A stretch of 10,024 nucleotides of DNA from a virus (lineage: Duplodnaviria > Heunggongvirae > Uroviricota > Caudoviricetes). The stretch lies in the IMG/VR virus record IMGVR_UViG_2671180864_000013; one strand, given 5' to 3'. The stretch's first letter is position 1. Each line of letters starts with the position of its first letter. This document shows positions 1,101 through 10,024 of the stretch, piece after piece. The notes beneath the pieces are model-generated. The model searched no databases, had not been told where the DNA came from, and saw only the letters and a program-made list of their open reading frames with translations. Made by a program: the position numbers and the translations under genes.

Positions 1101-1180
1101 TTCCGCGCCGACCCGCCCCGTGGACAGGCCCCCCCCACCAGGAGGACCCGCAAAAAAGGCGGCTGCTGCCGCCTTGTTCT
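1101..1180. repeat. Copy A of an ~80-bp repeat (C-rich core 1112-1144 plus terminator hairpin)
   Basis: Aligns in register with 3631-3710; the 33-bp core cccgccccgtggacaggccNcccccaccaggag matches 32/33. Confidence 0.7.
1151..1175 (-). terminator. Intrinsic terminator ending the capsid operon
   Basis: Minus-strand RNA reads AAGGCGGC-AGCA-GCCGCCUU followed by UUUUG, starting a few bases after the capsid stop at 1180. Confidence 0.6.
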
Positions 1181-3060
1181 CATGAAGAAATCGCTCTGAC
1201 CATTCCGCGATAATCCAGAGCAGCAACGCCAGCATCAATGCGGACCTTCCAGGCCACACCGTCAACAATAAAGCCCTCCTGCTGCTCAAGGTAAGGCTCG
1301 TCATTACCGTCAAGATAAGCCACCTCAATTGTGTCCGTTCCCTGTGCTGAAAGCATGTACCATTGCTTATCACTGACTTCATCAAGGCGGGGATCGACAA
1401 TAATATCCAGTTGTTTGTGGTACGGGTTATATGAACCACTGTTTGTATCGGCACCGAAAGGCGTGGTTGAGTTAACCATTTGCAACGCTCTGTCTTCCAG
1501 AGCCGCAGGAACAAGAAGGAATTTTGGCACAATATTCAGCACCTCACCGTTTTCATCCCTCTGTGTGCGCATTGCACGGCGTGCAATGCCAAGCCCTGTA
1601 GTGCTGACTCCGTTATCAATATCATTTCCGTGTTTTTTGCTGAACAGCGGTATACCGTCAGAAAGCTTTGTGTTTCCTGTCAGCACCAGATGAACCAGAT
1701 TACCCACCGTTCTGGCGGCTGCTCGCCCCATTGCCTGTGGGATAACTGTTAACTGATTCAGGTCATCGTTAATAATCGCCTGTCGGGTAATGCTGAAAAT
1801 ATTTCCGTAAGTTGCCAGCGCGATTGGTTCGCCACGGTCACTGGTGGTGATGTATTTATATTCCGCGCCTTCCGGCACTTTGTTTAATGTAGAGAAGCCA
1901 TTCAGGCCAACACGACGTGCCTCATGGAAGTTTGACAATGAACCTTTTTTCGTCCACTGGCGGAACGTTTCGCCGCTGTGTTCCCATCCGGCAAGCACGG
2001 ATTTTTCAGCACCACCAGCAAGGATATAAGTAAAATCGCTGCTGCTGTGGGTGAATGCCGCGTTTACTATCTGCGAGCGTGTGCTGTAGCTGCCTGTGCT
2101 TATGCCGCGATGGGTTAATGATGCCTGTGCCATATCGAAAAGGCTCATCATGGCGTAAGGGTTGCCGCGTTCTGCCTGTTCATGTCCCAGACGCGCATTA
2201 AGCCCCTGACGCATTGCATCGCCGGTTATGTTGCCGTTATCCGTGTACGCGTAGTAAAGATTTGCGGGGGTGGTTTTGTTTGTCGGTGTCGATTCTTTAC
2301 CCATAGTGAGTAAAAGGCGTTCGCGTGCATCCTCAACGCTACAGCCTGAATCAGCAAGACAACTTATAGCCAGGTCGTTATATCTTCCATTGAACGTGCC
2401 AAACAATTCACGTATCCCGTTGAGTCGTTCCTGTTCTCCGCTGCCAGTTTTCTGGCTGATCATGCTTTTAATATTTTCCGGCATATTCGAAAAATCTCCG
2501 ATTCGTTTTGATTCAATTCTGGCCATTGCTGTAATCGCGGGTATAACCTCATCTGCGAAGCCATTAGCCTTACACTCATTGCCATCCATCCAGGTTTCCG
2601 CCTCCATCATGGCGGTGATTTCCTGTTTGCTCCTGCCCGTTCTTCCGGCGTAGGTTTCCGCCATCGTGTCGCCCAGCTTGTCCATCAGGTCAGCAAAGCG
2701 GCGAACGTCGCCCGACACTCCGGCAGTAACACCACGGGGGGCATGTATCATCATCATCGCGTTTTCAGGCATAACGATGTGATCGCCACACATGGCAATA
2801 AACGAGGCCATAGAAGCCGCCATGCCTTCAATGTGTACAATTTTCTTTGCCGGATGATTTTTCAGGGCGTTATAGATAGCCAGCCCTTCAAAGATGTCGC
2901 CACCAGGTGAATGGATGCGAAGATGGATTTCAGGCACATTACCGCACGCGTTGATCTCGTCAGTAAGTGCCGATGCTTTTACACCGTACCCGCCGATCTC
3001 GTCATAAATGCGTACATGTACAACATCAGCCATAGCCTTAATGGAAAACCATGTTTTCAT
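1180..3060 (-). CDS. Fused prohead protease (ClpP / S14-like) and HK97-fold major capsid protein, 626 aa
   Basis: N-terminal ~180 aa carry ClpP-like motifs (IHSPGGDIFEGLAIYNAL ... GMAASMASFIAMCGDHIVMPENAMMMIHAP). The C-terminal ~430 aa resemble HK97-type major capsid proteins. AGGAG RBS 8 nt upstream of the ATG at 3058-3060. Confidence 0.8.
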   Translation of the reverse strand: MKTWFSIKAMADVVHVRIYDEIGGYGVKASALTDEINACGNVPEIHLRIHSPGGDIFEGLAIYNALKNHPAKKIVHIEGMAASMASFIAMCGDHIVMPENAMMMIHAPRGVTAGVSGDVRRFADLMDKLGDTMAETYAGRTGRSKQEITAMMEAETWMDGNECKANGFADEVIPAITAMARIESKRIGDFSNMPENIKSMISQKTGSGEQERLNGIRELFGTFNGRYNDLAISCLADSGCSVEDARERLLLTMGKESTPTNKTTPANLYYAYTDNGNITGDAMRQGLNARLGHEQAERGNPYAMMSLFDMAQASLTHRGISTGSYSTRSQIVNAAFTHSSSDFTYILAGGAEKSVLAGWEHSGETFRQWTKKGSLSNFHEARRVGLNGFSTLNKVPEGAEYKYITTSDRGEPIALATYGNIFSITRQAIINDDLNQLTVIPQAMGRAAARTVGNLVHLVLTGNTKLSDGIPLFSKKHGNDIDNGVSTTGLGIARRAMRTQRDENGEVLNIVPKFLLVPAALEDRALQMVNSTTPFGADTNSGSYNPYHKQLDIIVDPRLDEVSDKQWYMLSAQGTDTIEVAYLDGNDEPYLEQQEGFIVDGVAWKVRIDAGVAALDYRGMVRAISS

Positions 3061-3251
3061 AGCCAGGCTCCTAACGTTGCCCTGTACCAGTATTCAACCG
3101 CGCTTCTCGCAATCTGCCCTTTCGTGGGTACTGGCATTCCAGGGTGATGACTTTTAATGAACTGCTGATAGCGTTCGAGCTTCTCCATAGTTCCGGCGTC
3201 TATGTGCACTGTTGCACTTTTATCCGGTTTTCTGCTGTTGTTCTCTGGCAT
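3057..3251 (-). CDS. Small protein (64 aa), possible ribbon-helix-helix-like, translationally coupled to the capsid gene
   Basis: Start taken at the Met with a GGAGG RBS 7 nt upstream (ATG at 3249-3251); the track ORF extends to 3284 without an RBS. ATGA overlap with the capsid start. The beta-strand/helix pattern (ATVHIDAGTMEKLERY) is weakly RHH-like. Confidence 0.5.
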   Translation of the reverse strand: MPENNSRKPDKSATVHIDAGTMEKLERYQQFIKSHHPGMPVPTKGQIARSAVEYWYRATLGAWL

Positions 3252-3324
3252 AAGTCTGCCTCCGTTATGATTAACGGGCATCATTATTGATCGATAAAAC
3301 TGGTAAATAAATCATTTTCTATCT

Positions 3325-3354
3325 AAAAATCAGATTATGTGTTTTCTGATTTTT
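3325..3354. promoter_or_regulatory. Perfect 10-bp inverted repeat AAAAATCAGA-N10-TCTGATTTTT upstream of the capsid operon
   Basis: Read directly; lies 70-100 bp upstream of the 64-aa ORF start. Candidate operator or leader hairpin. Confidence 0.35.
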
Positions 3355-3447
3355 GTCATACCAGCAAAAGAATTGACTAATTATTGCCACGCCAGCACAA
3401 TTAAGACTCATCATTTCGGTAGTGGCAGTATCCTTTGTCGCTGACAA

Positions 3448-3497
3448 AGCGCCTCCGGTGGCACCATCGGGGCGCTTTTTTTTGCGCCTGTTTTTTG
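3448..3497 (+). terminator. Plus-strand intrinsic terminator-like structure with two alternative hairpins, each followed by a T-run
   Basis: AGCGCC(3448-3453)...GGCGCT(3471-3476) followed by T7, then GGCGC / GCGCC(3484-3488) followed by T6. No plus-strand CDS lies upstream. Confidence 0.4.
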
Positions 3498-3630
3498 TAA
3501 ATGCTTTCGGGAACGTTCCGGCGTCGAACAAAAAACAACCTAATTCGACACTAAAAATTTTTATTTTGCCATATATCAATAACTTAAACTGGTGGTGATG
3601 GTGACATAAAAATCAAAAAATACGCCTTTT

Positions 3631-3710
3631 TCCGCGAACCGCCCGCCCCGTGGACAGGCCACCCCCACCAGGAGTACCTACAAAAAAGCCGGATTGCTCC
3701 GGCTTCTGTC
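3631..3710. repeat. Copy B of the ~80-bp repeat (core 3642-3674 plus terminator hairpin)
   Basis: See copy A; about 80% identity over 80 bp, with a near-identical 33-bp core. Confidence 0.7.
3681..3705 (-). terminator. Intrinsic terminator ending the SSB operon
   Basis: Minus-strand RNA reads AAGCCGGA-GCAA-UCCGGCUU followed by UUUUG, about 15 nt after the SSB stop. Confidence 0.65.
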
Positions 3711-3719
3711 ACTCGTTGC

Positions 3720-4142
3720 TTAAAACGGTATGTTATCCCCGTACGGATCATCATTCCCCGCCTGTTGTTTGGCCCTGTTCAGTGCATCAGTGGCCTGCCC
3801 CTGTTGGCCTTTTTTACCGCCCGGTCGCGCCGTTCTGGCACTGATTACACTGTCTGCGATAACCTGCCAGCCCTGCCGCGTTTCTCCGTTCTGGCCTGTC
3901 CACTGGCTTACCTGCATGTTACCCGCCACGCTCACCAGCTCGCCTTTCTGGTGCTTTGCCAGTGCGTCAGCCTGTCTGCCAAACGCCAGGACGGATAACC
4001 ATATCGTCGCCGTTCCGTCATCTGCCTGGCTGCACGGCAGGGGAACCGCCATACTCGCCATCGTCATTTGCGTACCCTTGCTGGTGGTCTTTAACTGCGG
4101 GTCAGCCACCAGCCGCCCGTAAGCCGCTATCTGTGCTGTCAT
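3720..4142 (-). CDS. ssb: Single-stranded DNA-binding protein (SSB), 140 aa
   Basis: OB-fold region parallels E. coli SSB by eye (GRLVADPQL ... WLSVLAFGRQADALAKHQKGELVSVAGNMQVSQWTGQNGETRQGWQV), with a Gly/Gln-rich linker and an acidic C-terminal tail ending DDPYGDNIPF (compare DDDIPF). Confidence 0.8.
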   Translation of the reverse strand: MTAQIAAYGRLVADPQLKTTSKGTQMTMASMAVPLPCSQADDGTATIWLSVLAFGRQADALAKHQKGELVSVAGNMQVSQWTGQNGETRQGWQVIADSVISARTARPGGKKGQQGQATDALNRAKQQAGNDDPYGDNIPF

Positions 4143-4429: not shown

Positions 4430-4657
4430 CTTCACCTGTTCACCTTTTGCAATTTTCCCTTTTTATTCATGATGTTAATGGGTTAACAGTTTCACAAAAA
4501 CTATTCACCAACTGTTCACCACTGTTCACCCTTAAAGCTCAATAAAGAATCAAAAAGGTGAACAGTGAATAGTTTGGTGAACAGTTCATAAATAACTGTT
4601 CACCCTATAATATACTGATATAAAAGACATTTATTGCAGGGTGAACAGTGGTGAACA
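4430..4657. repeat. Replication origin candidate: eight perfect TGTTCACC / GGTGAACA octamers plus variants, with AT-rich tracts
   Basis: Forward TGTTCACC at 4437, 4513, 4523, 4597; reverse GGTGAACA at 4557, 4576, 4640, 4650; variants at 4430-4436 and 4502-4509. Two tandem pairs have 10-bp spacing. Sits immediately 3' of the primase gene. Confidence 0.7.
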
Positions 4658-4698
4658 GTTATTCCATAAGTTTAATTTTTTCCATCGTCATTTGTGAC

Positions 4699-6489
4699 CT
4701 ATGCACATGATGGCATCCAGTCTTCTGAATCCTCTGTCAGGGTCACATTTGAACGCAAACCGTGCTTCGTTTTCCGTTTCATATACTCCCTGCCATATTC
4801 CGCCATTGCCCCCGGCATATCTTTACCGAAGCGCGTCAGTGTTACAGGTTTACCGAATCCGTGTGCCCTCATATATGCCAGATAGGCGTGATAAAGATAC
4901 CTGCGCGGACTGAACGGAATAATTTCGGCATTACCCACTAACAGACCATCACACATTACCGACGACATGAGATAGCCGCAGAAGTCCACCAGCGAATCGC
5001 CCTCGCGTTTTATCACCAGAGCTTCTTCTGATTTCTGCTGCTCATACAGCAGGCGTTTAGCTTCGTCCTGGTCAGAAAAACGAGTAAGCAGGTGGCGAAT
5101 CACAACCGCCAGCTCTCCTTCTATTTTTTCTGCCAGCATGGGGTCGCGTTCGTTCTCCGGTACAACTTCCGAAAAATTGAATATCACCCGACGACGTGAG
5201 ATCCCCCCGCTGCGGTCACTGAATGACATGGCGTTATTGTTAACCGCCAGCACTACTGCCGGAATACGCGTTGAGTAGGGGGCTTTGTGTTTCGGGTCAA
5301 TTGCCACCTTGTCACCGCCTGTAATGGCCTTAATCCCTGCCCCATCACCAGCGTAGCGGGTCATATCCGGCATGATAATCAGCGAAAAGCCAACCACTAA
5401 CGCGCGTTCCCTTGCATCTTCCAGCGCCTTCATGCTTGCCGATACTGTGTTGGCCTTACCCGCCAGCATGGTGCAAATCTCCGCCATCACGCTTTTACCA
5501 CTTCCCCCTGGACCTGTTACCTCAATGAATAACTGCCAGTCGTACCGGTTCGCCAGCACCATGAATAATACAGCCAGTACGCGATCCGCCTTGCGGTCAT
5601 TCTCAGCCACCGAACGGCGTAACCACTTCCAGAAATTCGGCGCATGTGTTGCCAGCGTTTCCCCCTCTGCTGGTGGGCTGAAAGGTAATTCACTGGCAAT
5701 TAACAACCAGTCGTTTTTGTTATGCTCCCGAAAATTACCTGTTCTGGTATCAAATACCCCGTTACTGAATCCAATCAGGTTACGGGCTGTATTCCCCATT
5801 ACAGGCAAACTTAACTTCATGGTATCGACCGCCGATTTAATGGCGTTCTGCGAATAGCTGATCTCCGCATCAATGAAAATCTGTGCCATAGCTCGCTGTA
5901 ATTCTTTATCCTGTACTGGCTCCCATACAACGCCGTTGTAATGGTGAACAGTGTCAGAGTCAGCATGAATCGCCAGTTCACCGCCATAATGTGCCAGGAG
6001 AACTTCGCCGCGTTGACTTGCTCCCATCTGGTTAAGCGCCAGTGATGAAGCGTTATCGTCTTTTACCCGCTCTTTTTTCTTTACAGGCAGTTCAACTACC
6101 TTTTTCTTTTCCGCCTGCTCTGCCCGTTCACGTTCCAGATATTCGCGCCAGTTCTCCCGTTTCTGGCTGTGCATTCCTTCAGGGTAATAATCAGCATCCC
6201 TGACACCTGCCACTGCCAGTTTCTGCCCGATGGTATTAACAAGCCCCGGACGCAATAACCCCGCCTGATAGAGACGCACGCGATAGCGTCCGTCCGGTAC
6301 GATTTGCAGGTTGTCCAGTTCGGCAAGTTGTTGCTCTCCAAGCCAGACAGGTGGCACGTTATCGCCAGCCAGTCGCCCGTCCTGTTCCTGCCACTGTTTC
6401 GCATGTGCCCACGCATCACTACCCGCAAAAATGATGACTTCCGTCATTTTGTCACGCGGCTGGTGTTTTAAATTTGGCGCTTTTTTCAT
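4699..6489 (-). CDS. Replication protein: primase / SF3 helicase (P4 alpha-like, D5-type NTPase), 596 aa
   Basis: Walker A motif GPGGSGKS inside a P4-family NTPase-like region. Start taken at the ATG at 6487-6489 (GGAGAG RBS; ATGA overlap with the upstream ORF stop) rather than the GTG at 6504. Iteron origin lies directly downstream. Confidence 0.85.
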   Translation of the reverse strand: MKKAPNLKHQPRDKMTEVIIFAGSDAWAHAKQWQEQDGRLAGDNVPPVWLGEQQLAELDNLQIVPDGRYRVRLYQAGLLRPGLVNTIGQKLAVAGVRDADYYPEGMHSQKRENWREYLERERAEQAEKKKVVELPVKKKERVKDDNASSLALNQMGASQRGEVLLAHYGGELAIHADSDTVHHYNGVVWEPVQDKELQRAMAQIFIDAEISYSQNAIKSAVDTMKLSLPVMGNTARNLIGFSNGVFDTRTGNFREHNKNDWLLIASELPFSPPAEGETLATHAPNFWKWLRRSVAENDRKADRVLAVLFMVLANRYDWQLFIEVTGPGGSGKSVMAEICTMLAGKANTVSASMKALEDARERALVVGFSLIIMPDMTRYAGDGAGIKAITGGDKVAIDPKHKAPYSTRIPAVVLAVNNNAMSFSDRSGGISRRRVIFNFSEVVPENERDPMLAEKIEGELAVVIRHLLTRFSDQDEAKRLLYEQQKSEEALVIKREGDSLVDFCGYLMSSVMCDGLLVGNAEIIPFSPRRYLYHAYLAYMRAHGFGKPVTLTRFGKDMPGAMAEYGREYMKRKTKHGLRSNVTLTEDSEDWMPSCA

Positions 6490-6785
6490 TTCTGCTCTCT
6501 CCACGCGGCAATCATGTTTTTTAGTTCCTGTAGTTTTTTATCAACATCCATACATGACACATGGTTATTTCTGGAAAGCGGGATTTCCCGACTGAATCTG
6601 CTAATAAAGATCTCCACGTTCAGCGAACTAAGAAATGAATAGCCATCACGGATAAAATACACACGGTCAAACATCAGTTCTTTTACCGTTACTCTGTTAC
6701 CGTTCTTATCCAGATAAATAGCGCCGGGGATAATTTGGGGGTGTGCATAACCGCTGGCAGTCAAGCCAGATAAATACGTTCTCAT
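6486..6785 (-). CDS. Hypothetical protein (99 aa), coupled to the primase gene
   Basis: ATG at 6783-6785; its TGA stop overlaps the primase ATG. No recognisable motif. Confidence 0.5.
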   Translation of the reverse strand: MRTYLSGLTASGYAHPQIIPGAIYLDKNGNRVTVKELMFDRVYFIRDGYSFLSSLNVEIFISRFSREIPLSRNNHVSCMDVDKKLQELKNMIAAWREQK

Positions 6786-6791
6786 GATTAT

Positions 6792-7112
6792 TTATCCCCG
6801 ATTTGAATCAGTATTCGCTTTCTTTATAGCATTTAATGCATCTGTGGCATTTTCAATGGTGCACCGTAACGAAATATCAAAATGTCCAAGCATTGCCAGT
6901 AACAAACCGATATTACCCATATCAATGCGCATGGCCTTTTCGTCATAGTCCTCATTTTCTGACGCATGCCACATCAGGCTACCAATTGACGCAACAGCCA
7001 TTGATATATTGTCAGTAGCCCCATCCGCAGCGGAATAAACCTTTTTAGCAATATCATGCTCACAGTTAAAATGCGGATTAATCAGGTACTGGTAATTTGA
7101 CATATCAGGCAT
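6792..7112 (-). CDS. Hypothetical acidic protein (106 aa)
   Basis: ATG at 7110-7112 preceded by a G-run; overlaps the upstream ORF stop by 8 nt. Asp/Glu-rich. Confidence 0.5.
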   Translation of the reverse strand: MPDMSNYQYLINPHFNCEHDIAKKVYSAADGATDNISMAVASIGSLMWHASENEDYDEKAMRIDMGNIGLLLAMLGHFDISLRCTIENATDALNAIKKANTDSNRG

Positions 7113-8156: not shown

Positions 8157-8366
8157 TTACGCTGCCTTACCTGAATTAATGCGATCCCGGCTTTTAACCC
8201 ATTCCATAACCTCGGACAGCAGCCAACCTACAGAACGCCCACCAAGATTACGGCGAGACGGAAAGCTCCCTTTTTTCTCCAGTTCGTAGCGTGTAGTGCG
8301 ACACACTCCAGTTAACTTACGACATTCATCCTCACGGATTACGCGATCTTCATTTATTTCACGCAT
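8157..8366 (-). CDS. alpA: AlpA-family (prophage CP4-57 regulatory protein-like) transcriptional regulator, 69 aa
   Basis: The segment RVIREDECRKLTGVCRTTRYELEKKGSFPSRRNLGGRSVGWLLSEVMEWVKSR parallels E. coli AlpA by eye. Start uncertain: ATG at 8364-8366 gives typical AlpA length but has no RBS; the GTG at 8451-8453 has an AAGAGG directly upstream and gives 98 aa. Confidence 0.75.
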   Translation of the reverse strand: MREINEDRVIREDECRKLTGVCRTTRYELEKKGSFPSRRNLGGRSVGWLLSEVMEWVKSRDRINSGKAA

Positions 8367-8785
8367 ACAAAAACCTACATAAAAATTACGTATATAAACT
8401 TTTCTCTTAGCTGTAGATATATGAGATCGGATATTACTTAGATTCTTTTTCACCTCTTAAATTAAAAACACAACCATACTAAAGGCTTTGTTCGCTAAGG
8501 TTCGTAGAAGCTCGTTAGTGTTTAAAATCGTGTCACGAGTTTTTAAGCGACGCAACAAAAAATGTCGTCATTTGGCATGTCACCTGAATTACCTCATTAA
8601 AAACAAATAGATAAACCATCAGGTGTTGGAACAATCAAGAAACAGAGAATAAGAACTCAGAAGAAGACATTTCAATTTTTTTCGATAGTTGACACATATA
8701 AAGAGAAGATATTTGCAGATATTCCCCGATATTCTAAGATCTATTCACGGCTGTAATCTCTTAAAGAAAAAACAGCCGTAATTTG

Positions 8786-10024
8786 TCAAGAATTTTGGGG
8801 GTAAATTCGCGGGGTCATAACAACGATTTTTTCATCATTGTTCTGGAGAAGCTCGAGACGGTCTACCCATAGATTAAGAGCGTCACGCTTTGCATCGAGA
8901 TAACGGGAGTGGTTATAGACGCGTTGCATTCCTGGCATCTGGTGGGCAGTAAGCTGTTCGACAATATGCGGATCCACGCCTAAATCGTTCAGCATGGTTG
9001 TAAATGTGTGCCGGATGTCGTGCAACGACCAGGGGGTTTGATTAATGCGTCTGTGTGCCGTTCTTCCGTACTCTGCTACGGATGATTGCCCTTTCAGTTC
9101 TCCAAGCAATAAGCCCGTGTGCCTGTTCTGCTCCACCAGCTTCATGACGAACGGCAAGATCGCTTCCGGTATTGGCCTGAATATTGCTACCTTCGTTTTG
9201 CTGTGTTCTTTCGGCACAGTCCAGAGCATTTCTTTAAAATCCCATTCCCGAACCTCGGAGCGTCTTAGCTCAGTGGTACGGCATCCGAAGACAATCAGAA
9301 GGCGAATTAAAGCGCTGTAGTACGGCGGGAAAATTTTTTCATCCAGTGCGCGGAGTAGCTCGCCAAGCTCCTTGTTTGTTAGCACTCGCTCGCTTATTTC
9401 TGCTTTTTTTCCCACATCACCTACGACCATATCATCAAGAACGTTACTGACGGCGTAGCGACGTTTACGGCAGTACTTAAGCGCCTGTTTGCATACCTGC
9501 AACAAAAAGCCGGCTGATACCGGATTACGCTTAGCAAGCTGGTCAAAACAGGCCAGCCAGTGGCGTAGCTCGCATTTATCCAGCGGCATAGCACCAATCT
9601 GGCTGATTATGTGCTTATTGATACGGCTTTTCAGTGATTCGTGGTCAGTGCGCTTTTCCTTCGCATACGACTCAAGCCAGTAAGTGAGCGCGTCCTTAAC
9701 CGTCACAGGGGCTAACGCTTCCTGCACTGTGTGATTAAGCTCATGGCGTGGATTTTTCCCCTCCGCCAGCCAGGCGCGACACTGTGCCGCTTTTTCCCTG
9801 GCTGCTTTCAGGCTCAGATCGGGATAGTTGCCCAGTCTCAGGCGTTCCGGTGATACCTGCCTGCCAGTTCCGGCCCTGTAAGTGAAATACCAGGTTAACA
9901 GGCCGCTGGTGGAATGTCTTACGCTAAGATTGCCACCGTCATTAAAAAAGGCGTTTTTTGTGGTTGGTGATCCGCTTAATTTTCGTAAAAGAGTGTCGCT
10001 AAGTCTATGAATTGCGCTGCTCAT
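8786..10024 (-). CDS. int: Tyrosine recombinase / integrase, P4-like, 412 aa
   Basis: N-terminal arm-binding-like region (FNDGGNLSVRH ... WYFTYR ... LGNYPDLSLKAAREKA) and C-terminal catalytic region with HDIRHT and downstream Tyr. The ATG is at the window edge, so a longer N-terminus cannot be excluded. Confidence 0.9.
   Translation of the reverse strand: MSSAIHRLSDTLLRKLSGSPTTKNAFFNDGGNLSVRHSTSGLLTWYFTYRAGTGRQVSPERLRLGNYPDLSLKAAREKAAQCRAWLAEGKNPRHELNHTVQEALAPVTVKDALTYWLESYAKEKRTDHESLKSRINKHIISQIGAMPLDKCELRHWLACFDQLAKRNPVSAGFLLQVCKQALKYCRKRRYAVSNVLDDMVVGDVGKKAEISERVLTNKELGELLRALDEKIFPPYYSALIRLLIVFGCRTTELRRSEVREWDFKEMLWTVPKEHSKTKVAIFRPIPEAILPFVMKLVEQNRHTGLLLGELKGQSSVAEYGRTAHRRINQTPWSLHDIRHTFTTMLNDLGVDPHIVEQLTAHQMPGMQRVYNHSRYLDAKRDALNLWVDRLELLQNNDEKIVVMTPRIYPQNS

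Follow-up and report, generated by a model that had tools for sequence, protein, structure and literature searches.

The 10,024-nt viral sequence IMGVR_UViG_2671180864_000013 from IMG/VR (hereafter the window) contains two similar stretches, at 1101-1180 (copy A) and 3631-3710 (copy B), and the question raised by this locus is what function, if any, these two stretches share. A first-pass annotation described them as an ~80-bp repeat carrying an intrinsic terminator, and proposed that the conserved core could be a protein-binding site, an RNA processing or antitermination target, or an element of RNA-mediated immunity resembling that of P4. Its gene content marks the window as a small but complete phage-inducible chromosomal island (PICI) of ~10 kb, and our analyses make it likely that the two repeats are the two cos DNA-packaging sites of this island, which has no terminase of its own. 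The relevant genes all lie on the minus strand, and both copies are read on that strand.

The two stretches do form a repeat, with identity close to the ~80% originally given: 68 of 84 alignment columns are identical (81%), and alignment recovered the reported match of 32 of 33 positions in the core (1112-1144 and 3642-3674). This 33-nt core occurs twice in the window, each time on the minus strand, and had no match in 200 shuffles even when three mismatches were allowed. The copies are direct repeats 2530 bp apart that bracket the capsid module, and the positions of the open reading frames (ORFs) agree with the earlier placement of one copy after the SSB gene and the other after the capsid gene. 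Although the repeat exists as described, the ~80-bp size first assigned to it was too small, as weaker homology extends left to ~960 and ~3490 (71% identity over ~216 nt); the true repeat unit is ~190-220 bp long.

Both copies match lambdoid phages (VT1-Sakai, Stx2 phages, 1720a-02, CP-1639, mEp460, and mEp213) solely in the intergenic stretch that separates Rz from the terminase genes, which is the position of cos. We scanned IMG/VR with the core pattern, which recovered 86 loci, and considered these together with loci fetched earlier; 52 copies were found in phage context (Rz-cos-TerS-TerL) and ~48 in island context (SSB-cos-ORF75-capsid or capsid-cos-ORF93, where ORF75 and ORF93 encode 75 and 93 aa). 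The location between the lysis cassette and terS-terL was observed in VT1-Sakai, 1720a-02, mEp213, mEp460, an O157:H7 prophage, and the 52 IMG/VR phage loci. The proposal that conservation of the core reflects a shared cis-acting recognition site for a protein thus proved sound, the site being a DNA packaging signal homologous to phage cos.

When aligned to known packaging sites, each copy reads as a lambda-type cos comprising a cosQ heptamer, a cosN, and a cosB of ~100-140 bp (Table 1). The elements GGGTCC (cosQ), ACGGGGCGG, and CGCGG keep the spacing seen in lambda and are in register with those of lambda, mEp213, VT1-Sakai, 1720a-02, and cos1 of EcCICFT073, a related island for which two functional cos sites and packaging by the helper terminase have been shown experimentally (PMC6092414, PMC6739421, PMC9026076); ACGGGGCGG and CGCGG are invariant across the alignment of lambda, EcCICFT073 cos1, and mEp213. 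Copy A reads ...UUUUUUGC GGGTCCT CCTGGTGGGGGGGGCCTGTCCACG GGGCGGGTCGGC GCGGAAAAAAACGC... on the minus strand, and the lambda equivalent is ...CTTTAC GGGTCCT TTCCGGTGATCCGACAGGTTACG GGGCGGCGACCT CGCGGGTTTTCGC..., in which GGGCGGCGACCT corresponds to bases 1-12 of the lambda genome. Both copies have the left cosN half ACG/GGGCGG (slash, nick) together with the CG flanks, in the form CACG/GGGCGGG...(C)GCGG. From this homology, the top strand of copy A is predicted to be nicked between 1119 and 1118, leaving a cohesive end at 1118-1107 (1118-1108 if it is 11 nt long), and copy B between 3649 and 3648, leaving a 12-nt cohesive end at 3648-3637; the latter occupies the same alignment columns as the cohesive end of lambda and has CG flanks on either side, as in lambda. 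The cohesive end GGGCGGCGCGCT deduced for mEp213/LLS (PMC12315714) also falls in the columns of the lambda end, and was the only one we found in the literature on measured cohesive ends of Shiga-toxin (Stx)-type phages. The ends of phage records were uninformative as evidence of the cut site, as the records of mEp460 and mEp213 do not begin at cos.

The cosQ element distinguishes the two copies. Alignment with lambda, EcCICFT073 cos1, and the phage cos regions places the lambda heptamer GGGTCCT at 1149-1143 in copy A, and this heptamer is present in all 52 phage copies and in all 23 island copies that follow the capsid gene. At the same position, copy B has AGGTACT (3679-3673), which occurs in 21 of 23 island copies that follow the SSB gene (the window's included) and in 0 of 52 phage copies.

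The two copies also differ in cosB, where they are 49% identical, compared to 90% across cosQ-cosN. The cosB of copy A (type A) is 84% identical to that of VT1-Sakai and 51% to that of 1720a-02 (80 columns), whereas copy B has a cosB (type B) that matches 1720a-02 at 94% and VT1-Sakai at 50% identity. The inverted repeat of type A is kept in VT1-Sakai, and the IHF consensus has two matches in the whole window, one of which lies in the cosB of copy B. Among the phage loci, type A cosB is accompanied by a VT1-Sakai-type TerS in 32 of 32 cases and type B by a 1720a-02-type TerS in 20 of 20. The two TerS alleles diverge only within residues 1-90, the N-terminal DNA-binding part (34 of 66 residues identical over positions 1-66, 68 of 68 over positions 91-158), and the TerL proteins of the two phage groups are identical at 705 of 707 residues (99.7%). 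Based on this covariation, cosB appears to be the TerS-binding region and to match the DNA-binding domain of the cognate TerS; as far as these alignments indicate, the two changing together is what classically marks a swap of packaging specificity. In the islands of the survey set, the site after SSB is always type B and the site after the capsid gene always type A.

The island itself conforms to the cos-PICI backbone, with integrase, alpA, primase, and origin in ~10 kb, no terminase, and the optional capsid gene, and its E. coli relatives are inserted between clpS and cspD. Searches of the window by tblastn using TerS, Nu1, RppA, and DUF1441 queries gave no significant match. In EcCICFT073, an island-specific cosB is read by a heterodimer of Rpp and TerS (PMC6092414, PMC6739421; reviewed in PMC9026076); an adaptor of this kind was not found in the window, and its cosBs are phage-like and not island-specific.

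From the base-level homology to cos, the cos position in phages, the covariation of cosB and TerS, and the lack of a terminase or Rpp homologue in the window, we infer how cutting and packaging would proceed, that two helpers could be used, and what the altered cosQ would do. After induction of a lambdoid helper the island would excise and replicate, helper TerS would bind cosB, and TerL would nick cosN at ~CACG/GGGCGGG (~1119/1118 and 3649/3648). DNA would then be pumped into the head in the order cosB, 93-aa ORF, att, int, primase, and SSB, and, when the head has filled, packaging would stop at a later cos whose cosQ is functional. As the two copies share a Stx-type cosQ/cosN but differ in their phage-like cosB, two helper classes are probably usable, and the island would probably be packaged directly by a helper of either class (VT1-Sakai-type or 1720a-02-type TerS) with no Rpp adaptor. 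Natural variation is not apparent in cosQ, which has been described as highly conserved among lambda-like phages (PMC4669245); it is needed for termination and not for initiation (PMC4669245, PMC6739421), and the altered cosQ probably makes copy B a poor termination site. We tentatively suggest, while holding it doubtful, that the copies divide the labour: the two cosBs would serve the two TerS classes without Rpp, the cosQ knock-out would restrict copy B to initiation, and a terminase that started at A would run through B to the next A. A termination-defective B would keep such a terminase from cutting there, so that no mismatched ends arise. As for the productive end of packaging initiated at B, multimeric packaging, which has been reported for EcCICFT073, would permit recombinational circularisation.

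Several points weigh against the view that both copies are working cos sites. The nick positions of both are predicted by homology, and the spacer between ACGGGGCGG and GCGGAAA ranges from 5 to 7 nt among copies, which makes the overhang length uncertain. The cosQ of copy B has two substitutions, and the predicted cohesive ends GGGCGGGTCGGC (A) and GGGCGGGCGGTT (B) differ at ~4 of 12 positions, so that packaging begun at B and ended at A would leave ends mismatched at ~4 of 12, which argues against a fully productive copy B. The surveyed loci are mostly close relatives, and the 52 of 52 cases of covariation do not amount to 52 independent events. Finally, a second cos need not benefit the island, given that deletion of cos2 in EcCICFT073 raised transfer (PMC6092414). 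Separately, we note that the spacer (window 1103-1118 and 3632-3648, and homologous positions in loci L001-L097) varies in both length and sequence even within one cosB type, and cohesive-end length or the position of the right-hand nick may vary in this group of cos sites.

It is conceivable, if not what we would expect, that only copy A works, in which case copy B would be decaying or tolerated like cos2 of EcCICFT073, with no role in helper range, or would act as a modulator or decoy. The non-canonical AGGTACT of copy B, which no phage copy shares, would fit this, as would its lower identity to phage across cosQ-cosN (82%, versus 92% for copy A), the gain in transfer upon deletion of cos2 (PMC6092414), and the type A cos of the natural embedded helper in O157:H7 that is described below. 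However, the cosB of copy B is the best conserved segment overall, at 94% identity to 1720a-02, the type B copy has been kept at the same position in ~25 islands whose primases are 46-100% identical, and a change in cosQ alone would leave initiation possible, since cosQ is required for termination only (PMC4669245, PMC6739421). We consider it improbable that the repeats are non-functional scars of head-gene capture or patches of recombination with prophages. Such an origin would be consistent with the position of the copies on either side of the capsid module, with the capture of phage late genes by satellites of this group (bioRxiv 10.1101/2022.07.18.500453), with a prophage fragment (L058, below) whose layout is that expected had a phage cos recombined with the cos of an island, and with the apparent homogenisation, in the lineage of the window, of the cores of A and B, which match at 32 of 33 positions compared to 28-29 of 33 in most two-copy islands. 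In this lineage, copy A has a B-like TCC ahead of ACG, which yields the 32 of 33 match and, to judge from the sequences, points to local gene conversion between the copies; island L017 displays the reverse. Yet the capsid fusions of the island and of the adjacent helper are no more than 51% identical and the 75-aa ORF is not the gpW-like protein of phages, which excludes a recent joint capture; moreover, cosQ, cosN, and cosB of copy A are conserved at the base level, the island lacks both a TerS and any other packaging signal, and in the related EcCICFT073 the cos sites have been shown to function. That copy B and the capsid module were captured together from a type B phage was rejected on similar grounds, as the 75-aa ORF is unrelated to the gpW-like protein and the capsid fusions are 51% identical.

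The remaining alternative, that the repeat is a terminator-linked RNA or regulatory element such as a processing or antitermination target or a P4-like immunity RNA, appears to us very improbable, although a terminator does adjoin each copy and the transcribed strand of the core is rich in G. On the existence of credible terminators the first-pass annotation was right: at both sites a GC hairpin and a run of six U residues are found directly 3′ of a stop codon, as expected of Rho-independent terminators (capsid fusion stop at 1182-1180, predicted fold of -15.3 kcal/mol, z -3.3; SSB stop at 3722-3720, -15.4 kcal/mol, z -4.2). The minus-strand hairpins were absent from the output of a promoter/terminator scanner, and folding was used as the check instead. 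Contrary to the order initially described, however, the hairpin and U-run precede the core on the minus strand, so that the core lies downstream of the termination point. Nor does the repeat carry the terminator, as had been stated: the two hairpin stems are unrelated, this segment is 56% identical, and it lies outside the conserved repeat. The phage homologues, which are found at cos, lack a GC-rich gene-end terminator upstream and have an AT-rich palindrome at the position of the copy A hairpin, and the copy B hairpin recurs in EcCICFT073, where no cos follows it. The hairpins are predicted to be ordinary operon terminators, features of the backbone that are separate from cos. The RNA fold of the core was no better than that of shuffled sequences (z -0.5 and -1.0), a permissive Rfam search of the whole window returned nothing at the repeats, with two chance microRNA-like hits in the iteron region (4486-4599), and the search for a complementary copy of the core that had been recommended found none in the window; a partner, a conserved structure, or a known family, any of which would have marked a P4-type or other structured RNA, was thus lacking, and the RNA proposals are unsupported. 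A 15-nt inverted match between 3647-3661 and 3892-3906 was dismissed as being at chance level for a 10-kb window. A further GC hairpin, GCGCCTCCGGTGGCACCATCGGGGCGC, with T-runs on both sides and flanked by T8 on the plus strand, separates the cosB of copy B from the 75-aa ORF (3453-3489); the O111 island has it as well, and it is possibly a bidirectional terminator.

Table 1 Features of the window. Positions are those of the 10,024-nt window; slashes in cosN separate the predicted cohesive end from its flanks.
Feature	Position	Strand	Details
93-aa ORF	640-921	minus	Follows copy A; PHROG 1561
cosB, copy A (type A)	960-1099	minus	Ends just before the 93-aa ORF (921-640)
Type A conserved motif	1003-992	minus	TTTTTGTTCGAC
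Type A inverted partner of R3-like motif	1021-1013	minus	GATGATGAT
Type A R3-like motif	1076-1061	minus	CGTCATCATCATCATG
cosN, copy A	1100-1129	minus	GGCCTGTCCACG/GGGCGGGTCGGC/GCGG, by homology with lambda
cosQ, copy A	1143-1149	minus	GGGTCCT, as in lambda cosQ; predicted nick 24 nt downstream
Predicted intrinsic terminator, capsid operon	1152-1175	minus	Stem-loop 1173-1158, GGCGGC-AGCA-GCCGCC; U6 1157-1152
ClpP-protease/major-capsid fusion (CLP_protease + Phage_capsid)	1180-3060	minus	ORF and Pfam
75-aa ORF	3057-3284		Follows copy B; PHROG 4934
cosB, copy B (type B)	3520-3629	minus	Phage 1720a-02-like
Type B conserved motif	3540-3523	minus	GGTTGTTTTTTGTTCGAC
Type B IHF-consensus match	3574-3586	plus	TATCAATAACTTA
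Type B R3-like motif	3605-3589	minus	GTCACCATCACCACCAG
cosN, copy B	3630-3659	minus	GGCCTGTCCACG/GGGCGGGCGGTT/CGCGG, by homology
cosQ position, copy B	3673-3679	minus	AGGTACT; two substitutions relative to GGGTCCT
Predicted intrinsic terminator, primase-SSB operon	3682-3705	minus	Stem-loop 3703-3688, GCCGGA-GCAA-UCCGGC; U6 3687-3682
SSB	3720-4142	minus	ORF and Pfam
Iterons	4497-4673		GGTGAACAG; just downstream of the primase gene
D5-type primase (D5_N/Pox_D5)	4699-6504		ORF and Pfam
AlpA (Phage_AlpA)	8157-8453		ORF and Pfam
Integrase	8786-10024		ORF

The 93-aa and 75-aa ORFs encode conserved satellite/phage proteins of PHROG families without an assigned function, and the 93-aa ORF sits where TerS is found in phages and Rpp in EcCICFT073. 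The iterons form a cluster of direct and inverted copies (GGTGAACAG and CTGTTCACC) at the position expected for the replication origin of the island.

The direct arrangement of two copies, with a spacing of 2517-2539 bp, was found in 13 IMG/VR loci as well as in islands of E. coli O111 and O157. Of 5426 complete E. coli genomes, 143 have the whole module and 1037 have the ~120-nt element. Two scans of a species-representative genome collection with cos patterns gave no matches. In O157:H7 strain 3-5-1, the terL gene of a lambdoid prophage is interrupted by a close relative of the island (L002, 1-7000; L098, 6400-8500), so that the N-terminal part of terL lies to one side, together with TerS and a type A cos, and the C-terminal part to the other, together with the portal and the capsid fusion. 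Going by this arrangement, which matches the 'helper-embedded satellite' described previously (bioRxiv 10.1101/2022.07.18.500453), the island and the prophage, with its type A cos and VT1-type TerS, are a natural helper-satellite pair. The IMG/VR prophage fragment L058 (980-2200) has the order Rz, type A cos, 93-aa island ORF, and terL fragment, the product expected if a phage cos recombined with copy A of an embedded island and TerS, a portion of terL, and the bulk of the island were lost as a result.

Other islands combine cos sites in different ways. The E. coli PMV-1 island (L003) has three, at 3707-3743 (plus), 4646-4611 (minus), and 7088-7052 (minus). One is of the Stx-phage type, follows SSB, and has an intact cosQ and a cosB of type A; the other two are lambda-type (GGGCGGCGACCT), and one of these is inverted. 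It is thus common for one island to mix cos types. The E. coli HS13-1 island (L004) has two direct copies, at ~7060 and ~9595, with an mEp460-like cosN and an intact cosQ in both. It also encodes, at 6376-6861, a DUF1441 protein of 161 aa with 54% identity to the TerS of 1720a-02 over ~140 residues; no similarity to RppA was detected for this TerS-like protein of the island, which is possibly an analogue of Rpp.

These results identify the repeat as a packaging signal and not a regulatory RNA, and point to Stx-type lambdoid phages with Gifsy-2-like fused protease-capsid heads as the likely helpers of this island family. If the two cosBs do serve two helper classes, they would represent a second route of helper hijacking in Gram-negative PICIs, in which the cosBs of helpers are copied instead of an Rpp being encoded, and copy B would offer a natural cosQ variant for the study of packaging termination. 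Both would bear on the movement of satellites among Shiga-toxin-producing E. coli.

Satellite cos sites, including two per island, are already known, and the features described here (direct orientation, two phage-like cosB specificities, the lack of Rpp, and the cosQ variant) are variants that are not categorically new. The closest known system is EcCICFT073 (Fillol-Salom et al. 2018, 2019; Murialdo & Feiss 2022), both cos sites of which we located in CFT073. The two islands share the gene order int, AlpA-like gene, primase, SSB, capsid genes, and 93-aa ORF (75% identical), both have two cos sites and no island terminase, and cos1 of EcCICFT073 likewise follows a terminator hairpin and is oriented with the genes. 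In contrast, the cosN of EcCICFT073 is lambda-type (GGGCGGCGACCT) while that of the window is of the Stx-phage type, its cos sites are inverted and flank rppA (17528-17570, plus; 18297-18346, minus) while those of the window are direct and surround the capsid module, and its cosB resembles that of no phage and requires Rpp, whereas the window has no rpp and each of its cosBs is phage-like. The proposed Rpp-binding R3 region of EcCICFT073 cos1, GGTGACACCACCACCAC (L011, 17600-17625), resembles the type B R3-like motif GTCACCATCACCACCAG (window 3589-3605), which may be chance or may hint at the origin of the Rpp/cosB pair.

Compared to lambda, the window shares the cosQ GGGTCCT (copy A), the left cosN half ACG/GGGCGG, the right flank CGCGG, and the location of cosB between cosN and the next gene, and the distance from cosQ to the nick is 24 nt where lambda has 23 nt. 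The inverted pair of short repeats in type A recalls R3/R2 and type B has an IHF-consensus site, although both cosBs are unrelated to the lambda R sites, and the cognate TerS of this cos type (DUF1441 family) has no BLASTP similarity to Nu1. In lambda, 21, and N15, cosB and the N-terminal domain of TerS are swapped together (PMC4669245), and the two phage groups compared here similarly share TerL (99.7%) and the TerS C-terminus (100%) while differing in the TerS N-terminus and cosB; for the VT1-Sakai and 1720a-02 types, specificity is deduced from covariation only. Among Gram-positive satellites, the Staphylococcus aureus pathogenicity island (SaPI) SaPIbov5 carries the cos of its helper and SaPIbov4 has two putative cos sites (cited in PMC6092414). 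These cos-type SaPIs belong to Gram-positive hosts, involve HNH-dependent terminases, and are unrelated in sequence; nevertheless, they resemble the window in that the helper's own cos is copied, its cosB-like part included, instead of a redirecting protein being used, and they set a precedent for an island with two cos sites.

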